Numbered from the stretch's first letter, positions 5,545-31,770 are shown. The stretch: 64,000 nucleotides of DNA from Gammaproteobacteria bacterium (GCA_963665145.1 OY762064.1:2790382-2854381); one strand, 5' to 3'. Program-made: numbers and translations. The notes: generated by a model from the sequence alone, not told the origin.

Positions 5545-6843
5545 CTAGGGCAGGTTTCTTTCGGCCATGGCGCGACGGTAGATCGGCAGCAGGCGCCACA
5601 GGAAAAACAGCCCCAGCAGACCGCTTATCGTGCCGATGATCGCCATCGAGTAGTGCAGCTTCATGTCGTTGGCGAACACGAAGTCGGTGATCAGCGCTAC
5701 CGACGTGCTGCCGAAGCCCATGCTGACGAGGGCCACTATGAACAGGTAAATCGCGCTGGTCTGGGCGCGCATGGACGGGGGCGTGAACAGTTGCAGCGTC
5801 ATCACGGCCAGCGGGAATACCCAGCTGCCGAAGAACAGCAGCGGTGCGTACATCAGCAAAGAGTAATTGGGATCCGGTATGAGCGTCGTAACTGCGGCTG
5901 CCGGCACCAGAGCGAAGGTGGCCAGAATGGCGGAGCGGATGGTGCCGCCCCGATCGCCGCGCTTGTGCAGGTAATCCGCGTGCATGCCGCCGACGATGGA
6001 CCCCACGCAGCCGAACGTTCCCACGATCAGGCCCAGCCTGAGCCCCACCGTGGCGCGCGGCATTTCGTGGATTCGAATGAAGTACTCCGCGCCCCAGACC
6101 AGGACCGCGTTGAATAGCAGGGAGAGCATGCAGAACGCCGCCACCAGGTAGCCGTAAACGGAGATATTTCTCCGCAGGAATTGAAGCAGTTCCGGGATCG
6201 GCACGCCGCCTTCAACGGCGCCATGGCGGGTGGGCTCGCGAAAGGTAAGGCACAGCAGGGCGATCACCAGTCCGGGCAGGCCGACGATGACCAGCGTGGC
6301 CCGCCAGGCGGACAGCTCTCCAAGCAGAGGCAGTTCCAGAGGCGGGCCCTGTTCCAGCGTGCCTACAAGCCAGCCGCCGAGTATCACACTGAGCCCATAG
6401 CCGACGAACAGGCCGGTCTGATAGGTGCCTATCGCGCGGCCGACCTTCTTGCGCGGGAACAGGTCGGTAATCAGCGAGAAGGCCGCCGGCGCCAGCGCCG
6501 CTTCTCCAACGCCAACGCCCACGCGCGCCGCAAAGAGTGATCCGAAGCTGCGCGCCAGGCCGCAAAGCGCCGTCATCAGGCTCCACAGCGCAATCCCCGC
6601 GCTGACGATGTTGCGGCGGTTGGAGCGGTCGGCCAGCCGCGCGATGGGTATGCCCATGGTGCAGTAGAACAACGCAAAGGCTATCCCCTGCAAGAGGCTG
6701 AATTGCGTGTCGTTCAGGCTCAGGTCGGCCTTGATCGGCCCCACCATCAGGCCGATGATCCATCGGTCGATCAGCGCGAAGGTGTAGGCGAGGGTGAGCA
6801 GGAACACTGCATACCAGGCGCCGATATTCTTGAGTCTGTCGAT
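5545..6843 (-). CDS. MFS transporter (spinster-like); probable non-canonical ATC start at 6843 (ORF track starts at GTG 6807)
   Basis: Highly hydrophobic, with motif A (RLADRSNRR) and ARVGVGVGEA. The frame extends upstream to ATC GAC AGA CTC (xDRLKNIGAWYAVF), preceded by GGGAGG. Confidence 0.85.
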   Translation of the reverse strand: MDRLKNIGAWYAVFLLTLAYTFALIDRWIIGLMVGPIKADLSLNDTQFSLLQGIAFALFYCTMGIPIARLADRSNRRNIVSAGIALWSLMTALCGLARSFGSLFAARVGVGVGEAALAPAAFSLITDLFPRKKVGRAIGTYQTGLFVGYGLSVILGGWLVGTLEQGPPLELPLLGELSAWRATLVIVGLPGLVIALLCLTFREPTRHGAVEGGVPIPELLQFLRRNISVYGYLVAAFCMLSLLFNAVLVWGAEYFIRIHEMPRATVGLRLGLIVGTFGCVGSIVGGMHADYLHKRGDRGGTIRSAILATFALVPAAAVTTLIPDPNYSLLMYAPLLFFGSWVFPLAVMTLQLFTPPSMRAQTSAIYLFIVALVSMGFGSTSVALITDFVFANDMKLHYSMAIIGTISGLLGLFFLWRLLPIYRRAMAERNLP

Positions 6844-6902
6844 GTGGGTGAGGTCCTCCCGCGCCGGTTAGCGCGCAAGCTTACGCCAATTCGCCTGAGG
6901 GG

Positions 6903-7679
6903 TTACTCGGAGAATGTCAGAAGGACGCCGGGCGCCTGGGCGGTCAGGCTGCTGTCGTCGCGTTGGAATGGCTGCCCGGCGTCGCGGAGCGCCCGGGCGG
7001 TCTGGTTCAGGCTGCGTGTGCGCAGATGCAGGGTGGTGAAGCCCCTCAAGCCTCGTTCGAGCGGATGGATCTTGAGAAATTCCGGCGCTTGCGGACTTCC
7101 GAGCAGGCGGTATCGGCGTTCCGCGTCGTCCACATCGTCGGTTTGCAAGGTCATGCCGGTCAATTCCGTTGCGCCGTTGGGATGCGCGTTCATTGCCGAC
7201 CAGAACACGAGTTCGGGCGTCATGTGCTGCACGTAGCCGCACAGCGCTTCGGGGAAGTTTTGCGGCGGCAGAGCCAGCCAGCGGAACCGCGCGGTCGCGC
7301 CTTGGGCGTATTGCAGGCGGCGGCTGGCTTCGCCGACCGGTGTCGGGTCTTGCCCGGCCTCCACCGCTTGTTCGCGTGCTGCAGCAATGTCCGCGGCCCG
7401 CAGAATAAGGATGCGAATGGCGTGGCCGTCGCCTATCCAGGGTGCCAGGTGATGGTCCGGCCCTGGTGCGGTGACCTCGCTCAGCTCTACATAAGTGGAC
7501 CCGAAGATGAAGTGCGCGCTTTGCTGGCCCAGGCTTCGCTCTTTGCCGTCGGGCCCGGTGCCCATCAGTTCTACCGGGTCAGTGACCTTAAAGCCGAGCT
7601 TGCGAAAAGCGGCGACAGTGGCGCCGATGTCCGGTCCCACCAGGCCGACGTGATCGATGTCGAGCCCGATACGCTTCAA
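6903..7679 (-). CDS. VOC/glyoxalase-like family protein
   Basis: TTG start overlaps the upstream TGA. IDHVGLV, LGF, TYVEL and HPNGA motifs. Confidence 0.8.
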   Translation of the reverse strand: MKRIGLDIDHVGLVGPDIGATVAAFRKLGFKVTDPVELMGTGPDGKERSLGQQSAHFIFGSTYVELSEVTAPGPDHHLAPWIGDGHAIRILILRAADIAAAREQAVEAGQDPTPVGEASRRLQYAQGATARFRWLALPPQNFPEALCGYVQHMTPELVFWSAMNAHPNGATELTGMTLQTDDVDDAERRYRLLGSPQAPEFLKIHPLERGLRGFTTLHLRTRSLNQTARALRDAGQPFQRDDSSLTAQAPGVLLTFSE

Positions 7680-8983
7680 GATGTCTGGCCGCCTGGCAGT
7701 TCTCGCTCCTGCCTGTCCATGGCGCGGCGATAGATCGACAGCAGCACCCATAGCAGGATGACGCTCAACACCCCGCTCAGCGTGGCGGCGATCGCCATGG
7801 AGTAGTGGAGCATTGCGTCGTTGTGAAATACGAAGTCGGTAATCAACGCGACCGCTGTTCCGCCGAAGCCTATGCCCGTCAGGTTGACGACGAACAGGTA
7901 AACCGCGGAGAACTGCGCCCGCATCGGCGGCGGCGTGAACAGTTGCAGTGCAGTCGTGGCCGGCGCAAACACCCAGCTGGAAAAGAACAGCAACGGCGCC
8001 AGCAGGACCACCGAGAGCCCGGCGCTGGGCATCAGCGTGATGGTGGCGCCCAGGGGGAGCACGATGCAGGCTGCCATGAGCGCGGAGCGAATCGCGCCGC
8101 CGTTGTCGCCGCGGCGCTTCAGGTAGTCGCAATGCAGCCCCCCGCAAATGATGCCCGAACCCCCGAAAAAGGTCACGATTACACCCAAGTAGGTTCCTGC
8201 CCTGCCCGGGGTCTCACCGTGAATGCGGATCAGGTATTCGCCGAACCAGGCGATCTCAGCGTTGAACAGCAGCGTCAGCATGGAGAAGGCGAGGAAATGC
8301 AGGACATACAGCTTCCAATGCTGCGCAAAAAAGGCCCCGACCTGACTGATCGGCAGTCCGCCGGCCTTCGCTTGCAGGCGCGCCGGCTCGCGGAAGGTAA
8401 GACAGAGCCCGGCAATGATCAATCCCGGGAGTCCCAGCACCACCAGCGTCAGCCGCCAGGGAGTGAGTTCGCCTACGATCGGCAGGGTTACCGGCTCCAG
8501 GGCGCTGATCAGCTGTCCCACCAGAAAAAAACTGAGGCCGATGCCGATGAACACGCCCGAGGAATAGATTCCCAGGGCGCGGCCGAGCTTCTCGCGCGGG
8601 AACAGGTCCGCGATCATCGAATAAGCGGCCGGCGACAGGGCAGCTTCGCCGACGCCGACGCCGATCCTTGCCAGGAAGAGCGATCCGAAGGTCCGCGCCA
8701 GGCCGCACAGCGCCGTCATCACGCTCCAAACGGCGATGCCGGCGGAGATGATGTTGCGGCGGTTGGCCCGGTCCGCCAGCCAGGCGATGGGGATGCCCAG
8801 CAAGGTGTAGAAGATCGCAAAGGCGAGGCCTTGCAGCAGGCTGAACTGGGTGTCGGTAATGCCCAGCTCGGCCCGGATCGGCCCTACCATCAGGCCGAGG
8901 ACCGAGCGGTCGATGTATGAGCAGGTGTAGGCGACCGTGAGGACGCCTACGATGTACCAGCTACGACGGGGTTGAGCGCTCAC
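7676..8983 (-). CDS. MFS transporter (spinster-like), paralog of 5545-6843
   Basis: WLADRANRR and ARIGVGVGEAALSPAA motifs, with multiple hydrophobic segments. Confidence 0.9.
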   Translation of the reverse strand: MSAQPRRSWYIVGVLTVAYTCSYIDRSVLGLMVGPIRAELGITDTQFSLLQGLAFAIFYTLLGIPIAWLADRANRRNIISAGIAVWSVMTALCGLARTFGSLFLARIGVGVGEAALSPAAYSMIADLFPREKLGRALGIYSSGVFIGIGLSFFLVGQLISALEPVTLPIVGELTPWRLTLVVLGLPGLIIAGLCLTFREPARLQAKAGGLPISQVGAFFAQHWKLYVLHFLAFSMLTLLFNAEIAWFGEYLIRIHGETPGRAGTYLGVIVTFFGGSGIICGGLHCDYLKRRGDNGGAIRSALMAACIVLPLGATITLMPSAGLSVVLLAPLLFFSSWVFAPATTALQLFTPPPMRAQFSAVYLFVVNLTGIGFGGTAVALITDFVFHNDAMLHYSMAIAATLSGVLSVILLWVLLSIYRRAMDRQERELPGGQTS

Positions 8984-8990
8984 TCAGGCC

Positions 8991-9019
8991 GGAAACGAGG
9001 GCGTCCTGCCCTCACTCCC
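8991..9019 (+). repeat. REP-like palindrome
   Basis: ggaaacgagggcgtcctgccctcactccc. Confidence 0.65.
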
Positions 9020-9024
9020 GCAAA

Positions 9025-11217
9025 TCAGAATGATGCGTGTACCTGGAATGCGATGGAACGTCCTTCTCCGGGGTAGCCAAGTGCCGCGCCGATGCCGCCG
9101 AAGTCCTTGCTGCGGTCGTTCAGTGACGTGAACCGTACCGAGTTCTGGTAATACTCCCGGTCCAGCAGATTGCGCACCACGACCGCCGCTTCCACGCCGT
9201 TCAAAAAGCGTATTCCGGCGCGAATATTGGCCAGCATGATGCTGCCCTGGCCCACTTCCACTTCGTTGAACTGGCTGTGATAGACCGTTGAACGGTAGGC
9301 AACCTGCGCCATCGCCGAGAACTCGCCGGGCCCAATGTCAGCGTTGTAGTTCAGCGTCGAAGTCAGCGAAAGTTCCGGCGCATTGACCATGTTGTTGCCG
9401 GACAGGTCGAGCACATTGGGCTGGCGGCCTGCCGGTGTGTCAATGAATCCGTAGCGGCTCAGGAACTCGTCATATTCGGCCTTCAGTGCCATCACGGAAC
9501 TGGTCCAGGTGAACTCGTCGGACAGCACCGCGGACACGTCCAGCTCCAGACCCGCCACCGTGGCCTCGGCAGCGTTGGTTACCACCACCGTGCCCTCGGA
9601 AAACGTGGATACCTGGAGGTCGGTGTAGTCATAGAGGAAGGCTGCTGCATTGACGATCGCCCGGCCGTCGCCCAGCGTGGACTTCCCGCCGACCTCGAAG
9701 CTCCAGAGGTGTTCAGGATCGAATGCCGCATCCCCGCTCAGCGAGTTGGTGCCCCCGGACTTGAAGCCGCGCGTAAGCGTTGTATAGACCATGATGTTGT
9801 CGCTGTAGTCGTACTTCAGTCCGAACTTGGGCGTGAAGGCATTCCAGTCGTCGACCGTCATCCGTGGCGGGAAGCTGAAGCTGAAGGCCCTGGGATCGCT
9901 GGCGCCGAACAGGCCGTCGAAGTTGCCGCCGGTCAATCCGCGCAGGTTCCAGTCGTCCTTCTCCTCGTTGCTGTAGCGAGCGCCCACGATGCCGTCCAGG
10001 CGGTCGCTCAGATGCCAGGTCAACTCGCCGAAGCCGGCCCAGGCGTCGGTCTTGTTGGTAGCGAAGATGTTGAACGCGCCGCCGAAGTTGATGCCCGGCA
10101 GACCGAAATCCTCTACCTTGTCCTCGGTGAAGTAATAGAGGCCGGCGATCCATTCGTAGTCGGGGCAGTCGCAGGCCAGGCGGATTTCCTCGGAGAACTG
10201 GTCGGTTTCGCGCTCGAAATGGGTCTGGGTGACGAAGATCTCGGTGCCGTCGGTGTTGAAGCGGAAGCTGTCCTCGAATTGCCGGTAGCCGGTAATCGAG
10301 GTCAGCGTCAGGCCGGTGCCCAGGTCCGCCGTCACTACGCCGGTAATTCCGCTGATGGTCCACTGCTGGAAGCTGTCCACCTCGTTGCGGGTCTGGTCGA
10401 AGTCCGGCAGGGGCATGGCGCCTTCGGCCGCCGAGCGGTGCAGGTTGCCGCGCGGGCGGATGGTGCGGTTGTCGCCGTCAAAATCGGTCCAGTCGCCGAC
10501 CAGTTTGACGGAAATCGTGTCGGACAGGGCGAACTTGACGGTGGCCCGCAGGGCGCTGGTTTCGCCGCCGTCCACTTCGTCCCCTCCCGTCGGGTCCAGG
10601 TCCTCGGTGAATCCGCCGTCTGAACCGTAACGCACGGCCAGGCGGAAGCCCGCGTTGTCGCCGATCGGGCCGCCGTAGGCTGCTTCGGCGTCGTAGCGGT
10701 TGAAGTTGCCGATCTTGAGGTTCACATAGCCTTCGGCTTCCTCGCCCGGCTCGCGGTGAATGACGTTGATCACGCCTGCTGTGGCATTACGGCCGTAGAG
10801 TGTGCCTTGCGGTCCGCGCAGGACCTCGACGCGCTCCACGTCCAGGAACTGGTTCAGGCCCATCTGCGCGCGGCCCTGGTAGACGCCGTCCTGGTGCACG
10901 GCCACGGAAGAGTCCTGGCCGATGCCGAAAAGGTTGGTGCCGACGCCGCGGATATAGAGCTGCGCCTCGCCGCCGGCGCGGCTGAACACCAGCGAAGGCA
11001 CGTCCAGGCTCAGGTCTTCGATCTCATCGAGCCCGCCGTTCTCCAGCATGTCGCCGCTAACGGCCGTGATGGCCAGGGCAGTGTCCTGGATCGACGCTTC
11101 CCGCTTCTCGGCGGTGACGATGATCTCTTCGAGTACGTTGTCCTGCGCCGCCAGACTGCCGGCGGCGATAAGTGCGATGGCGGTGGCTATAGGCCGCCGG
11201 AGAATGCCAATTTTCAT
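9025..11217 (-). CDS. TonB-dependent receptor
   Basis: Signal peptide, LEEIIVTAEKRE, ERVEVLRGPQGTLYGRN, C-terminal Phe. Confidence 0.93.
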   Translation of the reverse strand: MKIGILRRPIATAIALIAAGSLAAQDNVLEEIIVTAEKREASIQDTALAITAVSGDMLENGGLDEIEDLSLDVPSLVFSRAGGEAQLYIRGVGTNLFGIGQDSSVAVHQDGVYQGRAQMGLNQFLDVERVEVLRGPQGTLYGRNATAGVINVIHREPGEEAEGYVNLKIGNFNRYDAEAAYGGPIGDNAGFRLAVRYGSDGGFTEDLDPTGGDEVDGGETSALRATVKFALSDTISVKLVGDWTDFDGDNRTIRPRGNLHRSAAEGAMPLPDFDQTRNEVDSFQQWTISGITGVVTADLGTGLTLTSITGYRQFEDSFRFNTDGTEIFVTQTHFERETDQFSEEIRLACDCPDYEWIAGLYYFTEDKVEDFGLPGINFGGAFNIFATNKTDAWAGFGELTWHLSDRLDGIVGARYSNEEKDDWNLRGLTGGNFDGLFGASDPRAFSFSFPPRMTVDDWNAFTPKFGLKYDYSDNIMVYTTLTRGFKSGGTNSLSGDAAFDPEHLWSFEVGGKSTLGDGRAIVNAAAFLYDYTDLQVSTFSEGTVVVTNAAEATVAGLELDVSAVLSDEFTWTSSVMALKAEYDEFLSRYGFIDTPAGRQPNVLDLSGNNMVNAPELSLTSTLNYNADIGPGEFSAMAQVAYRSTVYHSQFNEVEVGQGSIMLANIRAGIRFLNGVEAAVVVRNLLDREYYQNSVRFTSLNDRSKDFGGIGAALGYPGEGRSIAFQVHASF

Positions 11218-11313
11218 GCAAGAACCTCGTGCATTGTTTAGCGGGAAAAAAGGGCGGCCCCGCGTGCCACCCCGATTCTTAAGAATGATACCGCAATCCC
11301 TCGGTTCCGGAAA

Positions 11314-12021
11314 TCAGGGGACGGTGAGATCTACCTTGCCATGCTTGCGGAAGGCGGCAGCAACACGGTCGAACACTACCCCCACGCGGATTACGGAGAA
11401 GTCGCGGAAATCGATGATGGTGCTGGAATGCCCCTGCGGGTTGGCGTATTTCGACAGTCCGTAGTCGAAAAAAACGGTAGCTGCTTCGCGTACCGGCGCC
11501 TCGATGTCCTCGTAACGGTATTTCGAGCCCTGCAGCGAGGTGTTCGCCGACGAACCGAACACTGGCATGCCGCGCTCCCAGGACTGGCGGGCGATCTCGT
11601 TGTGAAACTGCCCGGCATTGAGCAGCATGTCCATGGTCCCGGCCCTGGTCGAGGACTGCATCACGAATGGTTCGGTTCGGGCGAAGAATTCGTGTTCGAC
11701 ATGAAATGGCGCCACGATGGAGAAAGGGATGTCTTCCTCGCGCACGATGGTCTCGGCCAGATCGTGCTTCCAGTCGTCCATGATGTGGATGGCCCGGCTC
11801 ATCGTGACGTTGGCGAACAGGCCGCCGGGTTTCTCGTAACTCCGCTTCTTGGCTGCGTAAATCCGGCGGATGCCGGTCTCGGTACAGGCGTTGACTGCAT
11901 AGGCGACGTCCAGTGGTGCAATGGCAACCTCGCCGGCTGCAATCGTGTCCAGCAGCAGCATTACGTCGTCCTGCAGTTGCCCGGCAGGGACCGGATCGGC
12001 GGTGGTGCGTTCTTTGTCCAT
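11314..12021 (-). CDS. Sua5/YciO/YrdC (TsaC)-fold protein, divergent paralog
   Basis: IYAAKKR (KxR), SSAN (SxN) and SSTIID...IRVG motifs. The canonical PTETVYG is replaced by PLDVAYA. Confidence 0.75.
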   Translation of the reverse strand: MDKERTTADPVPAGQLQDDVMLLLDTIAAGEVAIAPLDVAYAVNACTETGIRRIYAAKKRSYEKPGGLFANVTMSRAIHIMDDWKHDLAETIVREEDIPFSIVAPFHVEHEFFARTEPFVMQSSTRAGTMDMLLNAGQFHNEIARQSWERGMPVFGSSANTSLQGSKYRYEDIEAPVREAATVFFDYGLSKYANPQGHSSTIIDFRDFSVIRVGVVFDRVAAAFRKHGKVDLTVP

Positions 12022-12029
12022 AATAGAAG

Positions 12030-13406
12030 TTAGCTACAGAAGGGTTCAAGAAGAGGGTTGATTCGGCGAAGTTGCCCGAGGTTATCAAGAGTAGAGGCAA
12101 CCTGGGCGGCGTTGATGTCGTTTTCGCCGGCGGTAAGACTCTCGAACTTGGAGATCAGGTCTTCGCGCCCCATCGGGTTGGCCGGCGTGCCCAGGCTGTC
12201 GAGTATGTCCGAGCGGCGGCTGCGGCCGTTTCGCGTCTTGAGTTCCAGCCAGCTGCCGAAATGCGAGGGGAAAGCCGCCTGCATGTCGGGGTCGGCTACG
12301 GCCTCCACGCGATCCGCGATTGCCAGCGTGCGGCTGTCGTTGAGCGCATCGCCCATGAACCCGGCCACCGAACTCGGGCCGTAGTAGAGCGCCGCGCCCA
12401 GCGTGAACGGCAGGCTGTATTGGGCGGCCATCTCGGAGGTGGGGCGGCGCAGCATGTGCTGGGTGACCATGATGTCGGGCCCGCCCACCACGATCGAATC
12501 GATGGCCGCGGGATCAAGGCTGAAATCTTCGGTGACCTCGGCCAGCGCGTCCAGCGTGGAGTGAAACAAGCGGCAGCAGGGGTAGGGCTTGTAACTGATG
12601 CGGTGAATCTCCGGACCGTCGGGATGGGGACGGTTCAGCCGTTCGGGATCGGAATCAGCGCCGAAATTGGCGATCAACCCGTAGCGGCCTTCGAGCGCCT
12701 GCTCCGGGCCGGCGATGCCGAGCGCGGCATGTTCGGCCGCCATTACGCCGTGCAGGGCCGCGTAGCCGCCGTGCAGGCGTTTCACTGTGGTGCCTTCGGG
12801 TTCCTGGCTGAACTGCATCGATCCGCCGGCCATCGAGAGCATCAGTCCCCAGGCGCGCGCCAGTTCCTTCGGCGACAGGCGCAACAGGACGGCAGCCGCT
12901 GCCGCCGCACCGAAACCGACGAACAGGCTGGTGGGATGAAAACCCAGCTCGATGGTCTCGGCCGCGTTGGTGGCCGCGCCCACGCGGCCGACCGCTTCGT
13001 AACCGGCGCAGATCGCTGCGGCCAGGCTTTGGCCATCGAGGCCGTGATGGGAGCCCAGCGCCAGGCTGGAGGCAATGACTGCGGCGCCCGGATGGCTGAC
13101 CGACTCGTCGTGGGTGTCGTCGAGCTCCAGCCCGTGGGCCGATGTGGCGTTGACGAAGGCCGCAAGGGCCGGGGCCAAACGGGTTTGCGACGCCAACAGC
13201 GGTGCGTTCCCCGAGCCGGCGTGGGGGGCCGCCCATTCGTGCAGCCGCCGGCCCCAGGCCAGTAGCGAGCCGGCGTAGCAGCAGCCGAGGTGATCGAGGA
13301 CCAGGTTCTGGATCTGCCCAAGGTCGCGTTCGCCCAGGGGCGTGTCGCCGATCGACAGAAGCTCCTCCGCCAGCGCCAGGCTGCGTCCGTCGCCGGGATT
13401 GCTCAC
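12030..13406 (-). CDS. MmgE/PrpD family protein
   Basis: AHGLELDDTH...HPG, GFHPT, KRLHGG and KPYPCC motifs. Confidence 0.9.
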   Translation of the reverse strand: MSNPGDGRSLALAEELLSIGDTPLGERDLGQIQNLVLDHLGCCYAGSLLAWGRRLHEWAAPHAGSGNAPLLASQTRLAPALAAFVNATSAHGLELDDTHDESVSHPGAAVIASSLALGSHHGLDGQSLAAAICAGYEAVGRVGAATNAAETIELGFHPTSLFVGFGAAAAAAVLLRLSPKELARAWGLMLSMAGGSMQFSQEPEGTTVKRLHGGYAALHGVMAAEHAALGIAGPEQALEGRYGLIANFGADSDPERLNRPHPDGPEIHRISYKPYPCCRLFHSTLDALAEVTEDFSLDPAAIDSIVVGGPDIMVTQHMLRRPTSEMAAQYSLPFTLGAALYYGPSSVAGFMGDALNDSRTLAIADRVEAVADPDMQAAFPSHFGSWLELKTRNGRSRRSDILDSLGTPANPMGREDLISKFESLTAGENDINAAQVASTLDNLGQLRRINPLLEPFCS

Positions 13407-15247
13407 TTTGCGGTCTCCCCACCCAGGCTGCGCCGCAGCGCTTCGGTGGCTTCAAGGTCGGGCCCGCCGTTGTCCGGGTCGACCACCACGCCGTAGCTGT
13501 CCCGCGCCTCGGCCGCGGTCAGCAGCCCGTCGAGAACATCGTGCGCCACCCGGGCCGGGTCGCGCTCGAGCGGGTTGCCGTAACCGCCTGCGGATACCAG
13601 CGTGATCTCCAGCCGGTCGCCGGCCGCGAATCGGGCATGCGATACCTTCGCCGGAAGTTCCTGTTCCTCGGGCGTGTTCGGATTTACTTTCACCTGCCCC
13701 GGCAGGCCATTCGCGCCGCCGAAAATACCCTGTGGCGGGTCGTCCGAGCGGTTGTCGCCGGTAGAACTGACCGCAGCATCCTTCAGGAAACGCCAGGTCT
13801 TGATTGCGCCCATGCCGCCGCGCCAGCGCCCGGCGGCCGGCGCTTCGTCGCGCAACTCGTAACGCTCGCAAAGCATCGGCACCGACAGCTCCATCTCCTC
13901 CAGCGGGTTGTTGCGCGTGTTCGCCATCAGCGTATCGACCGAATCCAGACCGTCGCGTCCGTGCCGCCCGCCATACGAGCCCTCGTTGATCTCCACGTTG
14001 ATCTGGTACTTGCCCTGGTGCGACTCGAAGGAATACACGAAGCAGGACACGTTGGCGGAGTTGCCGCCCGTCACTCGCTGCGGCAGGGCGCCGCTCAGCG
14101 CCCGCAGGACCTGGTCGGGAATGCGGTTGATCTGGGTGAAGCGCGCCTCGCAGCCGCGCGGGTAGATCGGATTGAAGATACTGCCCTTGGGCGCGTGGGC
14201 GAAAACCGGGCGAAATACGCCGTCATTCTGGGGAACGCCGGCACCCTCGCCGATCTCGTCCAGAAGCAGGGCGCGGACCGCGAAGTTCACTGCCGGAAGC
14301 ACGCTGCCTTCGAACGGGCAGTTGAAGCCCGTGGTGGTTTGCGGTGTCGAACCTGTCAGGTCAACGCAAATATCGCTGCCGCGCACGATCACCCGGGTGG
14401 CGATCTTCAGCGGGATGCCGAAGTGCTTGCCATCGTCCTCCAGCCACGCGTCAGGCGCCGCGTAATCGCCGTCGGGCAAACGCTCGATGCAAGCGCGCAT
14501 GCGGCGTTCGGCGTAGCTCATCCATTCTTCGGCGGCGCTCATCACGCGATCCAGGCCATGTTTGGCCACCAGCCCCGCGAAGCGCCTCTCGCCCAGCTTG
14601 CAGCAGGCGATCATCGCTTCGAGATCGCCGGCGTTGGCGTCCGGTGTTCGCACGTTGTCCATGATCAGCGACCAGAGATCCTCGCGGCGCTCGCCGGCGG
14701 CGTGAAGCTTCACTGCGTCGAGGATCTGGCCCTCGGCAAAGAAATCCGGGACGTCCACGGAAAAACCCGGATCGGCGGCCCCGATGTCCACCATGTGGCC
14801 GGTGCAGCCGGCAAACCCGATGTGCACGTCGCCCACGAATACCGGCAGCAGCACGCCGTAGTCCGGGCTGTGCGAGGCGCCGTGGTAGGGGTGGTTGTGC
14901 AGGTAGATGTCGCCGGGCTGATAGCTTCCCCGGTGCTTGCGGTCGATGCCGCGCACATAGGCCGGCAGGGAGCCGCAATGCATCGGCGTGGAATCGCTCT
15001 CGCACAGTTGCCGGCCGTCGAAATCCAGCAGCGCGGCGCCGATGTCGCGCGATTCGCGCATCACGCTGGAGTAAGCCATGCGAACCAGCAGTTCGGCCAT
15101 CTCGTGGGCGATGGACTGCAGCGCGCCGCCGATTACCTGCAGCGATACCGGGTCCACCTCCACCTTGTTCCAGCGCCGCTCGGAGTGGGTGCCCAGGCCC
15201 GTGCTGCGCGCCTGGTCCAGTCCGGGCCAGAAATCTTTGGCGTTCAT
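13403..15247 (-). CDS. Hydantoinase B/oxoprolinase family subunit (HyuB-like)
   Basis: ATGA overlap with hyuA. AYSSVMRESRD, HPYHGASHSPD, GHMVDIG, GRWRGGMG and GGYGNPLERDP motifs. Confidence 0.9.
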   Translation of the reverse strand: MNAKDFWPGLDQARSTGLGTHSERRWNKVEVDPVSLQVIGGALQSIAHEMAELLVRMAYSSVMRESRDIGAALLDFDGRQLCESDSTPMHCGSLPAYVRGIDRKHRGSYQPGDIYLHNHPYHGASHSPDYGVLLPVFVGDVHIGFAGCTGHMVDIGAADPGFSVDVPDFFAEGQILDAVKLHAAGERREDLWSLIMDNVRTPDANAGDLEAMIACCKLGERRFAGLVAKHGLDRVMSAAEEWMSYAERRMRACIERLPDGDYAAPDAWLEDDGKHFGIPLKIATRVIVRGSDICVDLTGSTPQTTTGFNCPFEGSVLPAVNFAVRALLLDEIGEGAGVPQNDGVFRPVFAHAPKGSIFNPIYPRGCEARFTQINRIPDQVLRALSGALPQRVTGGNSANVSCFVYSFESHQGKYQINVEINEGSYGGRHGRDGLDSVDTLMANTRNNPLEEMELSVPMLCERYELRDEAPAAGRWRGGMGAIKTWRFLKDAAVSSTGDNRSDDPPQGIFGGANGLPGQVKVNPNTPEEQELPAKVSHARFAAGDRLEITLVSAGGYGNPLERDPARVAHDVLDGLLTAAEARDSYGVVVDPDNGGPDLEATEALRRSLGGETAK

Positions 15248-17313
15248 GGTGCGGGAGTGAGAAGGAGGTTGGAAAAGCGGTCCACGCGTGCCTGCCAACC
15301 CGGTGGGATGGCAGTTGTGGCGTCGGCCTGCTCGACGATGGCCGGTCCCTGGATACGATGGCCGGGATTAAGGCTGTCACGGTGATAGAACGCCGTGGGC
15401 CGGGGCTCTTCGGCGCCCGGAAACAGACAGGGAGCCGTCAAGGTGGCTTGCGCGGCCGTGTCTGCGGTTTCCGCAAGCTGTTGCGAAACCAGCGGTTTTG
15501 CGGCTACATAGGCGGAAACGCCCAGATTGATCACCCGCACTGGCATGTCCGGGTAGGCGCGAAGGTAGGCGCGCTGGTGTTCGGCATCAAAACGCTCGCG
15601 AAGCGAATCCGCCCAGCCATAATTGATTTCGCCGGCGGGAGTTTCCACGGCAAGCTCGTTGCCTTGGCCGGCATAGCGGCACTCCGCCCAGCGACGCAGC
15701 TGCACTTCGCCGGCCTCGAATCCGTCGCCCGCGAGGCGATCTCCGGCCTCGCGGCTCATGTTATCGAAAAGGCCCGATACGGCCGCGTAATCCAACTCGT
15801 CCAGTTCCCCCCACAAGGTAGCCTTGAACTCATAGCGCACCTGCGCGCTCAACAGCCCGCCGGCTGCGCCTACGCCGGGGTGCGGCGGAACCAGTACCTC
15901 GCCGATGGAAAGCACCTCCGCCACCGGTGCAGCGAACGCCCCGCCTGCGCCACCATAGGCTACCAGCGTGAATTCGCGCGGGTCAAAACCCTTGGAGACG
16001 CTGGCCACGCGCATGGCCTCGACCATGTTGTTCACCGCGATATCGAATATTCCAAGCGCTGCCTTCTCCAGCGGCAGTTCGAGCGGCTCGGCGATGTGCC
16101 GGCGGATCGCCCGTTCCGCTTCTTGCGGCGCCAGCGTCGGAACGGCCCCGGACAGGTGCTCGGGGCGATACCAGCCGGCCACGACCAGTGCGTCGGTCAC
16201 CGTAGGCTGCTCGCCACCCTTGCCGTAGCAGGCCGGGCCGGGATCGGCGCCGGCGCTCTGCGGCCCCACCCGGAACATGCCCTCGGCGTCCAGCCAGGCG
16301 ATCGACCCGCCGCCGGCGCCCAGCGTCGATATGTCGACCATCGGTGTCATCACGTCGTACTCGCCGACGTGGGTATCGAGAAGGCTGCGCATGCGCATTT
16401 CGCCGCCGGGAGCGACGCCGATGTCCGCGGAGGTGCCGCCGACGTCCAGCGTCATTACGTTTTCCCGGCCGATCTCTCTGGCCGCCTCGATGCCGGCAAT
16501 CAATGCTCCCACCGGTCCGGAAAGCAACAGGTTGACCGGGCGGCGTTCGGCCTCAGCGGGTGCAACCATGCCGCCGCTGGAGGTCATCAGGCGCAGCTGC
16601 GCCGGCACGCCGGCCTGCTCAAGGGCCTGGGCGAAGCGGCGGATGTAGCGGCCGGTCACCGGACCCACGTAGGCATTCATCGCGGTGGTCGAAAAACGCT
16701 CGTATTCCCGCACCAGCGGGACGATCTCATGACTTGCGGTCACATAGGCTTGAGGGAATTCGCGGCGGGCGATTTCTGCGATGCGTTTCTCGTGCGCCGG
16801 ATTGAGAAACGAGAACAGGCAGCACACGGCGATCGCTTCGACGCCTTGCTCCTTGAGCTGCTTGATGGCCGCCAGAACGTCGTCCTCGCGCAGCGGCACT
16901 TCCACTTCGCCCTCGGGCGCGCGAATCCGCTCACGGACCGTCATCCGCCAGCGGCGCGGCGCCAGCGGCCGGCTCTGGCGGGCGATTTCCTGGTAATGCG
17001 AGAAGTTGTAGGGACGGTCCTTGCGACCGATGTGCAGGACGTCGCGAAAACCCCGGGTTGTAATCAGACCGGTCCTGGCGCCCTTGCGCTCCAGCAGCGC
17101 GTTGGTCGCAACCGTGGTGCCGTGGCAGCAGAACTCCACGTCGGAGAAGTCAAGTCCGGCCTTTTGCAGCAGTTCCTCGGCACCCTCCATGGCGGCGCGG
17201 GCCGGATCGTCGGGCGTGGAGGCCAGCTTGTGGGTTGCCAGCACGCGTCCGTCGCGGTCGGCGGCGATGAGGTCGGTAAACGTCCCGCCGATGTCGATGC
17301 CGATTCGCGCCAA
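15244..17313 (-). CDS. Hydantoinase A/oxoprolinase family subunit (HyuA-like, ATP-binding)
   Basis: GIDIGGTFTD, HGTTVATN, LSGPVG, DVGGTSADI, GAGGGSIA and GPQSAGADPGPACY motifs. Confidence 0.93.
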   Translation of the reverse strand: MARIGIDIGGTFTDLIAADRDGRVLATHKLASTPDDPARAAMEGAEELLQKAGLDFSDVEFCCHGTTVATNALLERKGARTGLITTRGFRDVLHIGRKDRPYNFSHYQEIARQSRPLAPRRWRMTVRERIRAPEGEVEVPLREDDVLAAIKQLKEQGVEAIAVCCLFSFLNPAHEKRIAEIARREFPQAYVTASHEIVPLVREYERFSTTAMNAYVGPVTGRYIRRFAQALEQAGVPAQLRLMTSSGGMVAPAEAERRPVNLLLSGPVGALIAGIEAAREIGRENVMTLDVGGTSADIGVAPGGEMRMRSLLDTHVGEYDVMTPMVDISTLGAGGGSIAWLDAEGMFRVGPQSAGADPGPACYGKGGEQPTVTDALVVAGWYRPEHLSGAVPTLAPQEAERAIRRHIAEPLELPLEKAALGIFDIAVNNMVEAMRVASVSKGFDPREFTLVAYGGAGGAFAAPVAEVLSIGEVLVPPHPGVGAAGGLLSAQVRYEFKATLWGELDELDYAAVSGLFDNMSREAGDRLAGDGFEAGEVQLRRWAECRYAGQGNELAVETPAGEINYGWADSLRERFDAEHQRAYLRAYPDMPVRVINLGVSAYVAAKPLVSQQLAETADTAAQATLTAPCLFPGAEEPRPTAFYHRDSLNPGHRIQGPAIVEQADATTAIPPGWQARVDRFSNLLLTPAP

Positions 17314-17396
17314 GTTGCCCGCGCCTCTTCGCGCGCCAGGAGAAAGACGGCGGATTTTCTCATACCATCCAGGAAACGTGTATCGTTCGTCCGGCT

Positions 17397-18779
17397 ATGG
17401 GCGCACTCACCGAATCGCTCCTCGATTTCCTGTGTGGAGACCTGCCCGGCCAGGCGCCGGAACAGGCACGCGGTCTGGCTGTTACCGGCTTCATCGATTG
17501 CCTGGGCGTGGCGCTGGCCGGCGCCGATCAGCCTGTGACGCGCAACCTGTTGCAGGCCGAGCCCGGGGGCAGGGCAGAGTCCCGCGTTCTGCTCAGCGCC
17601 TTGCGTTTGCCGGCTCAATCCTCCGCCCTGATCGGTTCGGCGGCGGCACACGCAATGGATCTGGACGACTATGCCTTTGCCAATCACACCAGCGCCGTGC
17701 TGGTTCCGCCGGTCCTGGCGGAGGCCGAAGTAATCGGCGCGTCGGGCGCGCGCATGGTCGGCGCTTACCTCGCGGGATTCGAAGTCTGGAGCGTCCTGGC
17801 GCGGCGCGAGCGGGACTATATGCAGGGGGCGGGATGGCACCCCACCGGGGTCTACGGTCCGGTCGGTGCCGCTGCGGCGCTTTGCTGGCTACGGGGAATG
17901 TCCCGCGAAGAAACCCGCAATGCCCTGGGACTGGCCGCCGCTGCCGGAGGCGGCGTGATGGACAACTTCGGGACCCAGGCCAAGCCGTACCAGGCGGCAC
18001 GGGCCGCCGAAGCCGGTCTTGTCGCGGTGCGGCGGGCTCTGGCTGGTCTGGATGCAGGTCCGGACGCTCTGGACGGGGCCGGTGGCTTTCTTCGGGTGAT
18101 TTCGCCATCCGGCAGAGTGGATCGCGATTCTCCGGCGCAAGACCTTGGCAAGGACTGGTACATGGCCCGGCATGGCCTGAACATCAAGCGCTATCCGGTG
18201 GTGGGAGCCGCACAACGTTGCGTGGATGCGGCGCTACAGTTACGGGCGGATCATGAGTTCGATTGCGCAAGAATCGAACGGGTCACGGCGCGAATCAGCG
18301 AAGCGCACTCGTCGGTCATGCAGTTCCGCTTGCCATCCGACGCCATGCAGGCGAAGTTCAGCCTGGAATTCGCGGTTGCCGCCGCGTTGCTGTTCGGGCG
18401 GCTGGGCCTTTCTGAAATGCGCGATGACTGCGTGCGAAGTGATGACGTGCAGGCGCTCATGAAGCGCGTGCGACGCGTGGAGGGAGCGGATGACGACCCC
18501 GTTTACCCGGTGGGCGCTCGTTATGACACGGTTGGCGTTCAATTGACTGGCGGCAACGAGGTCGTCAGCGAGTGGGTTTATCGCTACCGCGGGCACGGGC
18601 AGAATCCGCTTTCGCGCGACGAGTTGCGCGAGAAGTTCATGGAATGCGCCACTCCCGCGTCGGAAGGTAGGATGTCCTCCCTTTCAGTGGCAGAGGAGTT
18701 GTTTGAGCGGCTGGAGCGCCTGGAAGAACTGACAGGCGTGCAGGAACTGCCGGAACTACCCCTTTTCGGGACGCATTAG
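17397..18779 (+). CDS. MmgE/PrpD family protein (second, divergently transcribed)
   Basis: AHAMDLDD, GWHPT, NFGTQAKP, IKRYP and AKFSLEF motifs. Confidence 0.88.
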   Translation: MGALTESLLDFLCGDLPGQAPEQARGLAVTGFIDCLGVALAGADQPVTRNLLQAEPGGRAESRVLLSALRLPAQSSALIGSAAAHAMDLDDYAFANHTSAVLVPPVLAEAEVIGASGARMVGAYLAGFEVWSVLARRERDYMQGAGWHPTGVYGPVGAAAALCWLRGMSREETRNALGLAAAAGGGVMDNFGTQAKPYQAARAAEAGLVAVRRALAGLDAGPDALDGAGGFLRVISPSGRVDRDSPAQDLGKDWYMARHGLNIKRYPVVGAAQRCVDAALQLRADHEFDCARIERVTARISEAHSSVMQFRLPSDAMQAKFSLEFAVAAALLFGRLGLSEMRDDCVRSDDVQALMKRVRRVEGADDDPVYPVGARYDTVGVQLTGGNEVVSEWVYRYRGHGQNPLSRDELREKFMECATPASEGRMSSLSVAEELFERLERLEELTGVQELPELPLFGTH

Positions 18780-20063
18780 TTTTTCCAGGATGGCGGCCGC
18801 GGCCAGCACGCGCATGTCGGAGAAGCGCGCGCCCACCAGTTGCACGCCGACCGGCAGGTCCTGCGGCCCCTTCAAGCCCGGCACCGTCACGCAAGGCAGA
18901 TGCAGCGCCGTGAACAGGCGGTTGAACGTCGCCTCGCCGTTGCCGTCCTTGCGCAGCGGCGCTTCTCCGGGCACCGAAGGCGTCAGCCAGGCGTCGAACC
19001 CGTCGAGCTGCCCGTCAAAGACCGGCCGCATCTGTTCGATACCGTTGTAGGCCTCGGTCATCAGCGCCGGGGTGATGCCGCGGTTGACCTCCACCTCGTC
19101 GATGATGTCCTCATGCAGTCCCTGCTTGCCGGCGCCGTATTCCGATAGCAGCGAAATGCGGGCTTCGCCGTGCATGATCACGTCCTGCCATTCGTTCATG
19201 TTCTCGGCGCCCGGTATTTCTGCGACCGTTTCCACGCGGTGGCCGGCCTCGGTCAGTTTGTCGGCAGCGGTTTCGACGGCCGATTGACTGGCTGTCTCCG
19301 CTTCGTCCCAGTAGGGCGTGGTGTAAAGGCCGATACGCAGGCGCCGGTCGGCTTCCGGCGGCTCCCAGGTCTCCAGCAGCAGGACCTCGGCGGTACACGC
19401 CAAAAGCGCCACGTCTTCGGCCATCCATCCGACCGTATCCAGGCTGGGCGCATGCATCCACAGGCCCTGGACCGGCACCCGGCCGTAGGTGGGCTTGAAG
19501 CCGGCTACCCCGCAGAACGACGATGGCCGGATCACCGAGCCGCCGGTCTGCGTGCCCAGCGCCAGCGGCGCCATGCCTTCGGCGACGCAGGCGCCGGAAC
19601 CCGCCGATGATCCGCCGGGCGTGTGCTTCGGGTTGTGCGGGTTGGTGGTGGACGGGTCGCGGCCGATGCCGGCGAACTCCACGGTGGCCGCCTTGCCCAG
19701 CAGCACGCAACCCGCCTGGCGCAGCAGTCGAACGCAGGCCGCATCCTGCTCGGCCCGCCGCCCCTCGTATCGTGGCGAATTGCGTTGCGTCATCAGGTCC
19801 GCCGTATCGATCACGTCCTTGACGGCGAACGGCAGGCCGTGAAGCGCGCTGCGCGCTCCCCTCAACTGCCGCTCGCTGTCCCGCGCCCGCGCCGTGGCCA
19901 GGGCCTGGTCGCCATCGAATTCAACGAACGCCCGCACCACCTGGTCGCGCCGTTCGATGCGCTCCAGACACCATTGGACGGCCTGCTCGCTGCTGACTTC
20001 CCCGCTTGCCAGGCGCGCCGCCACAGGGGAGGGGGCTGTGCGATCCGGTAAACCGTTACCCAA
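18756..20063 (-). CDS. Amidase signature family enzyme
   Basis: PFAVKD, PGGSSAGS and GTQTGGSVIRPSSFCG, i.e. the Lys-cisSer-Ser triad. Confidence 0.92.
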   Translation of the reverse strand: MGNGLPDRTAPSPVAARLASGEVSSEQAVQWCLERIERRDQVVRAFVEFDGDQALATARARDSERQLRGARSALHGLPFAVKDVIDTADLMTQRNSPRYEGRRAEQDAACVRLLRQAGCVLLGKAATVEFAGIGRDPSTTNPHNPKHTPGGSSAGSGACVAEGMAPLALGTQTGGSVIRPSSFCGVAGFKPTYGRVPVQGLWMHAPSLDTVGWMAEDVALLACTAEVLLLETWEPPEADRRLRIGLYTTPYWDEAETASQSAVETAADKLTEAGHRVETVAEIPGAENMNEWQDVIMHGEARISLLSEYGAGKQGLHEDIIDEVEVNRGITPALMTEAYNGIEQMRPVFDGQLDGFDAWLTPSVPGEAPLRKDGNGEATFNRLFTALHLPCVTVPGLKGPQDLPVGVQLVGARFSDMRVLAAAAILEKLMRPEKG

Positions 20064-21261: not shown

Positions 21262-21305
21262 TTTTTTCCGGAAATCCCGGGGCCGGGTCGCGGAACGGGT
21301 GTCCT

Positions 21306-26153: not shown

Positions 26154-26320
26154 GTAATCGCCCCGCCCATTGAGACAGCGTCCTGCCTCATTTCCTGCCC
26201 CCCCGCGCTGCGCCCAGCCACGGCCGTGAAAAGGATTCGCCGTGGCGGGATACCCTGATCACCCTGCACGGGGGTTGAGCTGACGCACCAGAGCTTCCAG
26301 GAATTCCCGCCGACGGCGAG

Positions 26321-26367
26321 TCGAAAGGTTAGATTAGATGGAAGTGTTTTGCAAGCTTTCGAAAAGG
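26321..26367 (-). promoter_or_regulatory. Putative aga operon promoter (TTGCAA-N17-TAACCT) flanked by CTTTCG-type candidate AgaR boxes
   Basis: Minus strand reads cttttcgaaagc ttgcaa aacacttccatctaatc taacct ttcga. AgaR sites are known to be built on CTTTC repeats. Confidence 0.5.
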
Positions 26368-26417
26368 CAAATCTCGGACTATTGAAAACTAATTGCCAGT
26401 GCCCCTTCTTGTAACCG

Positions 26418-27197: not shown

Positions 27198-27403
27198 GGT
27201 GTGTCCCCCAATGTGAGCAGGCATCCTAATTCACATTCCCTGCTTTCCTCAACCGGCCATGCAGGGAATCGGACCCGAAAGCCACATGTGGAACAGGAAC
27301 AATGGGTCCCCGGGACAGACTTCCGCAGGTTACGATAGCGCCCTTGCCGGCGCCTGAGGTCGTGCCGTTTTTTGTAGTTCAGCCTTGCGAATCATTCGAG
27401 CCA

Positions 27404-30951: not shown

Positions 30952-30965
30952 AGGAGGACAGGCTA

Positions 30966-31763: not shown

Positions 31764-31770
31764 GGTTCCT

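Follow-up and report, generated by a model that had tools for sequence, protein, structure and literature searches.

A candidate HyuAB-type ring-amide catabolic cluster with a divergent YrdC-like paralog in Gammaproteobacteria

To our knowledge, only HyuAB-type enzymes can open chemically stable lactams of 5 to 7 ring members without harsh conditions, and their known natural substrates are few. In caprolactamase, the ATP-site aspartates of the A subunit (CapA) are D11 and D295. In the caprolactamase subunit CapB, the metal ligands are D41, H99, D102 and H124, and the site is described as essential in PMC8453981. Characterized MmgE/PrpD enzymes, as presented in PMC12290011, act on substrates with a common 1,4-dicarboxylate backbone and share the protonation or deprotonation of C2; among them, iminodisuccinate (IDS) epimerase uses a two-base mechanism with catalytic His99 and Tyr145. 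Recent work on the PF01300 family covers TsaC/Sua5 and YciO, the latter with a conserved, positively charged RNA-binding surface patch and an rnm neighbourhood (PMC12506659). Here, we analyzed a cluster in which all three families stand together, located at positions 5545-20063 of a 64-kb stretch of DNA from a Gammaproteobacteria bacterium (GCA_963665145.1 OY762064.1:2790382-2854381; the whole stretch is referred to as the window). On sequence evidence, we take this catabolic system to be real, conserved and not yet fully understood, and we rate it as a putative new form of HyuAB-type ring-amide catabolism with a candidate new enzyme function. A first reading of the sequence knew of no described pathway with this combination of genes, and our literature search agrees in that it found none. 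Nor did it find a YrdC paralog described as part of HyuAB or PrpD clusters; the PF01300 supplementary neighbourhood tables of PMC12506659 may list the subfamily.

A listing of open reading frames (ORFs) and profile scans against Pfam and NCBIfam found all ten genes of the cluster at the coordinates and on the strands given below. The families assigned to them in the sequence-only reading were correct, and the divergent second MmgE/PrpD gene and the convergent amidase gene that it described are both present. The minus-strand order is hyuA-hyuB-prpD1-yrdC-like-TBDR-MFS_b-VOC-MFS_a, with prpD2 divergent from hyuA and the amidase gene convergent on prpD2 (TBDR, TonB-dependent outer-membrane receptor).

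15244-17313, minus strand: hyuA, ATP-binding subunit of an ATP-dependent lactamase/hydantoinase (Hydant_A_N; Hydantoinase_A, 259 bits; Hydant_A_C)
13403-15247, minus strand: hyuB, metal-site subunit (Hydantoinase_B, 467 bits), start set at ATG 15247
12030-13406, minus strand: prpD1, MmgE/PrpD family (MmgE_PrpD_N, 159 bits; MmgE_PrpD_C, 98 bits)
11314-12021, minus strand: yrdC-like gene, divergent Sua5/YciO/YrdC paralog of 235 aa (PF01300, 29.8 bits)
11251-11273, minus strand: terminator-like hairpin with T-run between the yrdC-like and TBDR genes (8 pairs, 6 of them G-C; a consensus match only)
9025-11217, minus strand: TBDR (Plug and beta-barrel)
7676-8983, minus strand: MFS_b transporter (MFS_1, 127 bits)
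6903-7679, minus strand: VOC protein (Glyoxalase_3, PF13468, 83 bits)
5545-6807, minus strand: MFS_a transporter, a paralog of MFS_b at 59% identity (domain scans and genome comparison)
17314-17396, no strand given: 83-bp divergent intergenic region between hyuA and prpD2, presumed promoter/operator (from gene coordinates)
17397-18779, plus strand: prpD2, second MmgE/PrpD family protein (both Pfam domains)
18756-20063, minus strand: amidase-signature amidase (PF01425, 247.3 bits)

Start-codon analysis gave a 4-bp overlap for hyuB/prpD1, and two more for hyuA/hyuB and MFS_b/VOC if hyuB starts at ATG 15247 and the VOC gene at TTG 7679. The gap from prpD1 to the yrdC-like gene is 8 bp, and the convergent amidase and prpD2 genes overlap by 24 bp. 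Only two wide gaps interrupt the minus-strand series, 96 bp between the yrdC-like and TBDR genes and 95 bp between the VOC and MFS_a genes. An operator search in the hyuA-prpD2 spacer returned just a weak 12-nt palindrome; at the same position, one related locus (L028) carries an inserted GntR-FCD regulator.

The YrdC-like protein retains the adenylation site of its family. Its residues K58/R60 and S158/N160 are invariant in 15 subfamily members and match, in an alignment with the TsaC of the same genome, the KxR/SxN tetrad of that protein. Canonical TsaC is encoded by a separate gene in the same genome (116.8 bits), to which the YrdC-like protein is 18% identical, with an extra segment of about 14 residues. 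Against the TsaC equivalog TIGR00057, the YrdC-like protein reaches 36.7 bits for a cut-off of 123.2, and the match covers only its C-terminal third. The AlphaFold2 model (pLDDT 90.8) adopts the YrdC alpha/beta fold. Its top Foldseek match is the uncharacterized SMU.1377c (3l7v; TM 0.75), followed by TsaC2/Sua5 (TM 0.66-0.70), both with a probability of 1.00, and by HypF. Judging by entry titles, the solved enzymes of YrdC fold among the Foldseek matches all produce adenylates of the carbamoyl type: TsaC2/Sua5 with threonylcarbamoyl-AMP and N-carboxy-threonine, and HypF, TobZ and GdmN with a carbamoyl adenylate. Adenylation of a carbamate or carboxylate is the only chemistry that we know of for this fold. 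Because the tetrad is kept, a separate canonical TsaC exists and the TsaC equivalog model is missed, we conclude from these comparisons that the protein is a paralog, that it has very probably retained ATP binding, and that it is not the t6A enzyme. By fold chemistry, its step would be the formation of a carbamoyl- or acyl-adenylate. Many subfamily proteins are labelled 'TsaC/SUA5/YrdC' or 'threonylcarbamoyl-AMP synthase' in their source records. A search for longer, fused forms found none, which is weak evidence.

HyuA and HyuB are encoded in adjacent genes with Hydantoinase_A and Hydantoinase_B domains. Both are closer to a solved fused enzyme of 1288 aa (PDB 7hk5, which bears the depositor's label 'N-methylhydantoinase') than to caprolactamase: HyuA scores 668 bits to 7hk5 versus 442 bits to CapA (6yra_A), and HyuB 571 bits versus 215 bits to CapB. 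The NCBIfam caprolactamase cut-offs (1000 bits each) were missed, at 595 bits for CapA and 248.7 for CapB. The retention of the Asp-His-Asp-His residues in HyuB, first read from motifs alone, was borne out by alignment, in which D69 (SRD), H126 and D129 (HSPD) and H151 (GH) of the 614-aa protein align with CapB D41, H99, D102 and H124. A literature search on PDB 9H03 and 7HK5 found nothing relevant.

The two MmgE/PrpD proteins, which share 27% identity, are by these scores closest to enzymes of the IDS-epimerase/IRG1 type and not to PrpD proper. The best solved relative of PrpD1 is IDS-epimerase (117 bits), and those of PrpD2 are Bacillus subtilis IRG1 (145 bits) and IDS-epimerase (135 bits). 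Both miss the NCBIfam PrpD equivalogs (TIGR02330, NF042438) by a wide distance (24.7 bits versus 458 for PrpD2, 34.7 versus 950 for PrpD1). PrpD1 keeps the catalytic His (H105) and has Thr151 at the position of Tyr145 of IDS-epimerase; PrpD2 keeps the His and, in an indirect alignment, has a Tyr about 2 residues off the Tyr145 position. The best solved relative of the amidase is malonamidase E2 (203 bits), a dicarboxylate half-amide hydrolase. The amidase falls under the cut-offs of all NCBIfam equivalogs, including those for AtzE (230 versus 532), allophanate hydrolase (189 versus 461) and indoleacetamide hydrolase (138 versus 487).

The TBDR scores 166.9 bits against TIGR01783 (TonB-dependent siderophore receptor) and misses the cut-off of 223.5. 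For both MFS_a and MFS_b the best NCBIfam match is TIGR00893 (D-galactonate transporter subfamily), below its cut-off and, for MFS_b, only partial at 95 bits. The VOC protein has no NCBIfam match and no match among PDB sequences, and the Atlas gives only 'VOC family' clusters.

We examined the conservation of the cluster in a set of 41 related genomes, comprising G000, 21 others of the same genus and 19 from other families of the order. The YrdC-like gene occurs in 21 of them: G000, 19 of the 21 same-genus genomes and 1 of the 19 from other families. Window-type HyuB orthologs occur in 18 of the 41, all of which have the YrdC-like gene, so that no genome has this HyuB without it. A scan of one genome per species yielded 176 YrdC-like relatives, of which the best 80 were taken, giving 18 gammaproteobacterial (gamma) loci and 62 others. 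The gamma loci contain HyuA in 17, HyuB in 17, PrpD in 18, amidase in 17, TBDR in 16, MFS in 17, VOC in 17 and an isochorismatase-like gene in 0; prpD2 orthologs are found in 17 of them at 54-83% identity. The prpD1 gene adjoins the yrdC-like gene in 18/18 gamma loci versus 9/62 others. Two of the gamma loci belong to lineages outside the genus, L027 (Exilibacterium) and L028 (metagenome-assembled genome (MAG) J054), and both keep the gene order. Their HyuA and HyuB are 52-68% identical to those of the window; L027 also has TBDR, MFS and VOC genes (46%, 59% and 36% identity), and L028 holds MFS and VOC. Because the same order recurs at this degree of divergence, we take the arrangement, on comparative grounds, to be more than chance. 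Two eroded clusters (G020 and L014) have lost hyuAB and the transport genes and kept prpD1-yrdC, and G020 keeps amidase-PrpD1-YrdC contiguous.

The co-occurrence of the YrdC-like gene with HyuAB and MmgE/PrpD in other genomes, expected from the first reading, was found, and the individual genes of the set are conserved in 16-18 of the 18 gamma loci. The co-occurrence extends to Alphaproteobacteria and to marine metagenome contigs, where YrdC-like, PrpD1-like and HyuAB genes also stand together. The idea of a dedicated TBDR/MFS import chain was upheld in part. Its genes are present in 16-17 of the 18 gamma loci; TBDR, MFS and VOC genes occur in 0 of the 62 other loci, and the chain is specific to the gamma clade.

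Beyond the gamma clade, the subfamily keeps similar company. A protein search listed 1040 relatives of the YrdC-like protein, mostly from Alpha- and Gammaproteobacteria, with the best 120 at 59-97% identity. Neighbour families were counted within 10 kb of the YrdC-like gene in the 62 non-gamma loci. An isochorismatase-like hydrolase is the commonest partner (46 loci, directly downstream in 43), and it is the one that the window cluster lacks. Next come amidase (33), HyuA (25) and HyuB (22), a dihydropyrimidinase (19; 597 bits to the equivalog versus a cut-off of 393) and uracil phosphoribosyltransferase (17). PrpD-like proteins occur in 14 loci, in 9 of them directly upstream and 52-58% identical to PrpD1; PrpB-like lyase in 13; and HMG-CoA-lyase-like protein and family-III CoA-transferase in 12 each. 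At least one amide or ring hydrolase family is present in 58 of the 62. The neighbours also include BiuH/RutB-like cysteine hydrolases and AtzE-like amidases, and a frequent arrangement in Alphaproteobacteria has HyuAB on one side of the YrdC-like gene and an isochorismatase-family hydrolase on the other.

A quick IQ-TREE tree sorts 77 YrdC-like proteins into eight supported clades, every one of them with a distinct gene context; L052 and L083 were assigned by gene order, and L053 was left unplaced. In all eight, the YrdC-like gene stands beside hydrolases of amides or rings (HyuAB, isochorismatase-like, amidase, dihydropyrimidinase), and the same contexts contain enzymes of substituted succinates (PrpD-, PrpB- and HMG-CoA-lyase-like proteins, CoA-transferase). 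HyuAB is found in 5 of the 8 clades, fully in clades C, F and G, and three clades have PrpD as the immediate neighbour. An isochorismatase-like gene is found in 7 of the 8, the gamma clade being the exception. Approached from the PrpD1 side, a metagenome scan gave 58 loci with at least 45% identity and enough downstream DNA; the YrdC-like gene lies directly downstream in 26, and 15 of these 26 have HyuA or HyuB too. In four marine contigs (L106, L109, L110 and L116), HyuAB, PrpB-like, PrpD1, YrdC, HMG-CoA-lyase-like, CoA-transferase and isochorismatase-like genes form one cluster; an amidase is present in three of the four and was not detected in L110. Another locus, L102, has the order PrpD2-amidase-PrpD1-YrdC-TBDR, with the TBDR at 51% identity. 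The convergent amidase/prpD2 pair is also present in L078 and L102.

Several loci of the subfamily have features of their own. L048, L071 and L081 contain tandem yrdC-like duplicates followed by an isochorismatase-like gene and a TRAP transporter. In L050, L051 and L057, which come from Polynucleobacter and a betaproteobacterial MAG, a pair of paralogs of about 320-330 aa follows the yrdC-like gene, a moeA homolog lies about 3.5 kb away, and the hydrolase families are all absent. Two ORF families recur in the 62 non-gamma loci, c9 (about 365 aa; L086:10827-11924) in 24 and c20 (157 aa; L039:15457-15930) in 20. Neither these nor a 287-aa ORF (L092:6263-7126), which neighbours the isochorismatase-like gene of a second locus described below, has a Pfam or NCBIfam match, and some of them may be wrong-frame ORFs in GC-rich DNA. 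A search of a plasmid collection gave only one distant YrdC-like pair, at 33% identity on a Variovorax replicon. The two genes of this pair (L091; Variovorax paradoxus CP063167.1, 866926-891579) are in tandem and stand in a catabolic-looking context, flanked by genes for TTT binding proteins, an ICL/PEP-mutase protein and a CoA ligase as well as for LeuCD-like dehydratase subunits and a CapA-family protein.

The system had been placed at 5545-20063, and here the comparison led to a wider view. About 70 kb from the cluster, the same genome has a second locus with isochorismatase-like, CoA-transferase, HMG-CoA-lyase-like and alpha-type HyuAB genes. The CoA-transferase is 65%, the HMG-CoA-lyase-like protein 56% and HyuA and HyuB 69% and 73% identical to their alphaproteobacterial counterparts. 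These gene types sit with PrpD1 and the YrdC-like gene in one cluster in the four marine contigs, and in L078 they stand beside a YrdC-like gene with homologs of the window amidase (36%) and PrpD2 (45%). Because the same genes form one cluster with PrpD1 and YrdC-like genes in the marine contigs, the window and the second locus look like a split version of a widespread pan-cluster. We also considered whether the second-locus HyuAB depends on the YrdC-like gene and rejected this, since its HyuB occurs in 34 of the 41 related genomes, including two (G015 and G018) that lack the YrdC-like gene.

Four HyuAB systems, each with its own transporter, are present in the 2.95-Mb genome. In addition to that of the window, the G000 loci L092 (C1:2870001-2890000), L093 (C1:2770001-2790000) and L094 (C1:1750001-1768000) hold three. 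System 2 (L092) is of the alpha type, with HMG-CoA-lyase-like, CoA-transferase and isochorismatase-like genes. System 3 has HyuB-HyuA in company with genes for an aldehyde dehydrogenase, a TPP enzyme and an acyl-CoA dehydrogenase, for TctC/TctA and for an isochorismatase-like protein. System 4 is a fused HyuAB of 1280 aa with two SSF symporters and a CitMHS transporter. Since there are four such systems, each with a transporter, ring-amide scavenging seems important for this sponge-associated lineage.

We propose that the locus serves the uptake and the ATP-dependent opening and breakdown of a scarce anionic cyclic amide (a lactam, imide or ureide) with a 2-substituted succinate (1,4-dicarboxylate) skeleton, a proposal for which we judge the chances to be even. 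We infer the substrate class, the order of steps and the roles of the YrdC-like and VOC proteins from homology and gene context. The transporters, MFS in the window and TRAP and TTT elsewhere, are of carboxylate types that carry organic acids. An anionic cyclic amide whose skeleton ends up as a branched di- or tricarboxylate is suggested because the partners are amide, imide and ureide hydrolases, enzymes that take substituted succinates, maleates and citrate-like acids as far as CoA-ester cleavage, and carboxylate-type transporters. The TBDR would carry the compound across the outer membrane and the two MFS carriers across the inner membrane. HyuAB would then open the stable ring with ATP, HyuA phosphorylating the substrate and HyuB hydrolyzing it at the Asp-His-Asp-His metal site. 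From the resulting carboxy-amide (a half-amide or ureido acid), the amidase would strip the amide nitrogen. PrpD1 and PrpD2 may work via a C2 enolate of the succinate, whether as epimerase, isomerase, hydratase or decarboxylase, and the YrdC-like paralog may use ATP to adenylate a carbamate or carboxylate of an intermediate. The products would pass on to acetyl-CoA, pyruvate or succinate, probably via the second locus.

Three candidate substrate classes each agree with part of these data. A cyclic imide or half-amide fits the likeness of the amidase to malonamidase, the neighbouring dihydropyrimidinase genes and downstream genes of methylsuccinate type; a ureido-dicarboxylate ring fits the carbamate chemistry of the YrdC fold and the AtzE-, BiuH- and RutB-like partners; and an opine-type lactam fits the likeness to IDS-epimerase and the proposal made in PMC6733357. 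The sequence-only reading had suggested, as examples, an opine lactam, an aminopolycarboxylate chelator or a carbamoylated metabolite; against the wider gene set, a cyclic imide or half-amide or a ureido-dicarboxylate is no worse a fit. A literature search for cyclic imide, half-amidase and imidase found no microbiology paper.

A number of observations weigh against the proposed pathway. The PF01300 score of the YrdC-like protein is marginal (29.8 bits for a gathering cut-off of 25.1, and 28.1 bits in a whole-genome scan). Four of the 62 non-gamma loci have none of the counted families, and 32 of the 58 metagenome loci have a PrpD1-like gene without a YrdC-like gene directly downstream. Because the loci of a clade share their descent, the raw locus counts overstate the independent support; by the quick tree only, about 8 clades are independent. 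In another family of the order (L098, G024:C181), a YrdC-like gene of 61% identity has as its neighbours a NiFe hydrogenase operon and a gene for an NMT1-like binding protein, with no catabolic partners on the 11-kb contig. Second-locus-type HyuB is far more widespread than the YrdC-like gene (34/41 versus 21/41 related genomes), so the link of that locus to the pathway is not obligatory. The cluster encodes no enzyme that cleaves an iminodiacid C-N bond and no obvious route for a released amino acid, and for this reason the pathway is incomplete in the window. The 96-bp gap that parts the enzyme genes from the transport genes carries the strongest terminator-like hairpin of the region, and on this account the cluster may comprise two transcription units; terminator-like sites overall are not above shuffle expectation (15 found versus 12.6 expected). 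The packed operon first described stands in its genes, strands and three overlaps, and its unity may not hold. With nagA ending 34 bp upstream on the same strand, the amidase gene could instead belong to the nagA amino-sugar operon. A search for sequencing runs that contain the stretch listed no RNA run.

Some of these points favour a view in which there is no single system but two or three separate units whose adjacency reflects descent within one genus: hyuAB-prpD1-yrdC, TBDR-MFS-VOC-MFS, and an amidase that ends the amino-sugar operon, with prpD2 alone. The hairpin, the closeness of the amidase to nagA, the absence of TBDR, MFS and VOC from the 62 non-gamma loci and the survival of prpD1-yrdC in G020 and L014 after the loss of hyuAB and the transport genes all agree with it. 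However, the neighbours recur outside the genus in L027 (TBDR, MFS, VOC), in L028 (MFS, VOC) and in L102 (PrpD2-amidase-PrpD1-YrdC-TBDR), and the convergent amidase/prpD2 pair appears again in L078 beside a YrdC-like gene; we consider separate units unlikely. The nature of the substrate raises a different alternative, that of an opine-lactam or aminopolycarboxylate route. Here, an N-substituted 5-oxoproline-type iminodiacid lactam (succinamopine- or succinopine-like) or an IDS-type chelator would be opened by HyuAB, deamidated by the amidase and epimerized by the PrpD-like proteins. IDS-epimerase is among the nearest relatives of both PrpD proteins, the HyuAB of the window has in the fused 1288-aa enzyme a much nearer relative than in caprolactamase, a TBDR would suit a metal chelate, and on the succinamopine Ti plasmid hyuA/B-like genes, which are proposed to open the lactams of succinamopine and succinopine, adjoin an asparaginase (PMC6733357). 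Yet the cluster has neither a C-N lyase nor an opine oxidase, PrpD1 lacks the Tyr of the two-base pair, and no role would be left for the YrdC-like enzyme. The dihydropyrimidinase, BiuH/RutB-like, AtzE-like and uracil phosphoribosyltransferase partners in the wider family point instead to ureide or imide chemistry, and this route appears rather improbable.

N-carbamoylsarcosine amidase belongs to the isochorismatase family, and the alphaproteobacterial arrangement of YrdC-like genes between HyuAB and a hydrolase of that family accords with a reading in which HyuAB is the N-methylhydantoinase of a creatinine route (creatinine to N-methylhydantoin to N-carbamoylsarcosine and on to sarcosine), the other genes being bystanders. 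The 668 and 571 bits of HyuA and HyuB to the PDB entry of that name are in line with this, although the name is the depositor's label, with no assay seen behind it. Sarcosine oxidase SoxG is encoded elsewhere in the genome, and hyuAB of sponge microbiomes is usually assigned to creatinine breakdown in the account of PMC6742649; sequencing runs labelled as sponge metagenome contain part of the stretch (word shares 0.29-0.31, not mapped onto the sequence). In contrast, the isochorismatase-like gene is missing from all 18 gamma loci, with such genes lying elsewhere in the genome; the cluster has no cytosine/creatinine deaminase, and no creatininase was found. A TBDR and organic-acid-type MFS carriers would be unexpected for neutral creatinine or N-methylhydantoin, two MmgE/PrpD proteins would need a 1,4-dicarboxylate (PMC12290011), and three further HyuAB systems in the genome could serve creatinine. 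The creatinine route suits the whole cluster poorly and is, in our estimate, highly doubtful for it; for HyuAB alone it may still hold.

Going beyond the proposed uptake and opening of an anionic cyclic amide, the YrdC-like protein may found a third functional branch of TsaC/Sua5 beside t6A synthesis and YciO, a speculation that we would not expect to hold. Such an enzyme would be catabolic and dependent on ATP and bicarbonate, and would N-carboxylate or adenylate an inert amide or ureido nitrogen or trap the carbamate formed on ring opening, and the nitrogen would then be removed by amidase-signature or isochorismatase-like hydrolases. Together, this enzyme, HyuAB and the PrpD-, PrpB- and HMG-CoA-lyase-like proteins would make up an undescribed pathway that is widespread among Proteobacteria of marine, soil and freshwater habitats. 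Possible substrates would be cyclic imide or ureide dicarboxylates, such as tetrapyrrole-derived maleimides (hematinic acid) or the hydantoin or dihydropyrimidine forms of carbamoyl-aspartate. If so, the YrdC-like protein would be a functional analogue of the pair of urea carboxylase and allophanate hydrolase.

A paralog family of a universal tRNA-modification enzyme, with its adenylation site kept, thus occurs in catabolic clusters of at least eight lineages. Should its reaction be found, the TsaC/YciO family would gain a new enzyme function and the label 'threonylcarbamoyl-AMP synthase' would be corrected. The clusters possibly provide a nitrogen and carbon route for an abundant, unrecognized class of environmental compounds, and cultured carriers of the yrdC-like gene exist, such as Hoeflea sp. 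CAU 1731, Flavimaribacter sediminis WL0058, Aquibium sp. A9E412 and Polynucleobacter campilacus, which makes the question directly testable.

The cluster is flanked by genes of other kinds. On one side, moeA (4263-5474) adjoins it. MoeA was considered as part of the system and rejected, as the synteny holds within the genus only and the gene is absent from L027 and L028; its presence near the yrdC-like gene in Polynucleobacter is probably a coincidence. On the other side lies the amino-sugar operon (20098-27224, minus strand), with nagA (TIGR00221, 314 bits, above the cut-off), a SIS-ROK fusion of 736 aa, GatZ/KbaZ, an MFS gene and a DeoR regulator. Further along the window, 28462-33920 (plus strand) encodes a CoxL-like molybdenum hydroxylase large subunit, an FAD subunit and AAA (CoxD-like) and VWA (CoxE-like) proteins; no small Fe-S subunit was identified there among ORFs of at least 150 aa. 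Paralogous beta-lactamase-family serine hydrolases (PF00144) are clustered at 35432-36733, 38056-39396 and 39356-40540 (all minus strand), followed by a Rieske oxygenase gene (40681-42015), and another lies at L092:17735-19033. An 861-aa ORF at 60776-63361 (plus strand) has amino-acid kinase, ACT and Orn/DAP/Arg decarboxylase domains and looks like an aspartokinase-diaminopimelate-decarboxylase fusion.

Among the described systems, the itaconate/methylsuccinate cluster (Ict, Ich, Ccl, Mcd, the MmgE/PrpD isomerase Msi and, in some cases, VOC) resembles the window in combining MmgE/PrpD with VOC. The likeness extends to the family-III CoA-transferase and HMG-CoA-lyase-like genes of the related clusters and the second locus, and to acyl-CoA dehydrogenase in Alphaproteobacteria. 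As presented in PMC12290011, however, it has no nitrogen-removing enzymes, HyuAB or YrdC paralog, and the window PrpD1 lacks the second catalytic Tyr. The Ti-plasmid opine-lactam regions likewise combine HyuAB with an amide hydrolase, both proposed to act on polycarboxylate opine lactams, but the account in PMC6733357 gives them ABC import, reports no PrpD or YrdC genes there and treats the lactam function itself as a proposal. The likeness to iminodisuccinate degradation lies in IDS-epimerase, which is nearest to PrpD1 among solved proteins and has the catalytic His in common with it, whereas the score is just 117 bits, Tyr145 is replaced and the window cluster has no C-N lyase. Cyclic-imide catabolism proceeds through an imidase or dihydropyrimidinase and a half-amidase. 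Enzymes similar to those of cyclic-imide and ureide routes (AtzE, BiuH and RutB types) flank the wider YrdC-like family, and the window amidase is nearest to a half-amide hydrolase; we know of no such route that uses a YrdC paralog or HyuAB. CapAB, N-methylhydantoinase and 5-oxoprolinase are like the window HyuAB in having two subunits, the same Pfam domains, the Asp-His-Asp-His site and, on our proposal for the window, ring opening as the first step. The partners in the CapAB and creatinine routes are unlike the two MmgE/PrpD proteins, YrdC paralog and TBDR of the window, whose HyuAB also remains below the CapA and CapB cut-offs. The YrdC-like protein shares with TsaC/Sua5, HypF, TobZ and GdmN the fold (TM 0.55-0.70), the KxR/SxN tetrad and the expected ATP-dependent adenylation of a carbamate. 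It differs from TsaC/Sua5 in its 18% identity to the genome's TsaC, its extra segment of about 14 residues and its place in catabolic clusters, not among t6A genes, and from YciO in having a catabolic neighbourhood in place of that of rnm.

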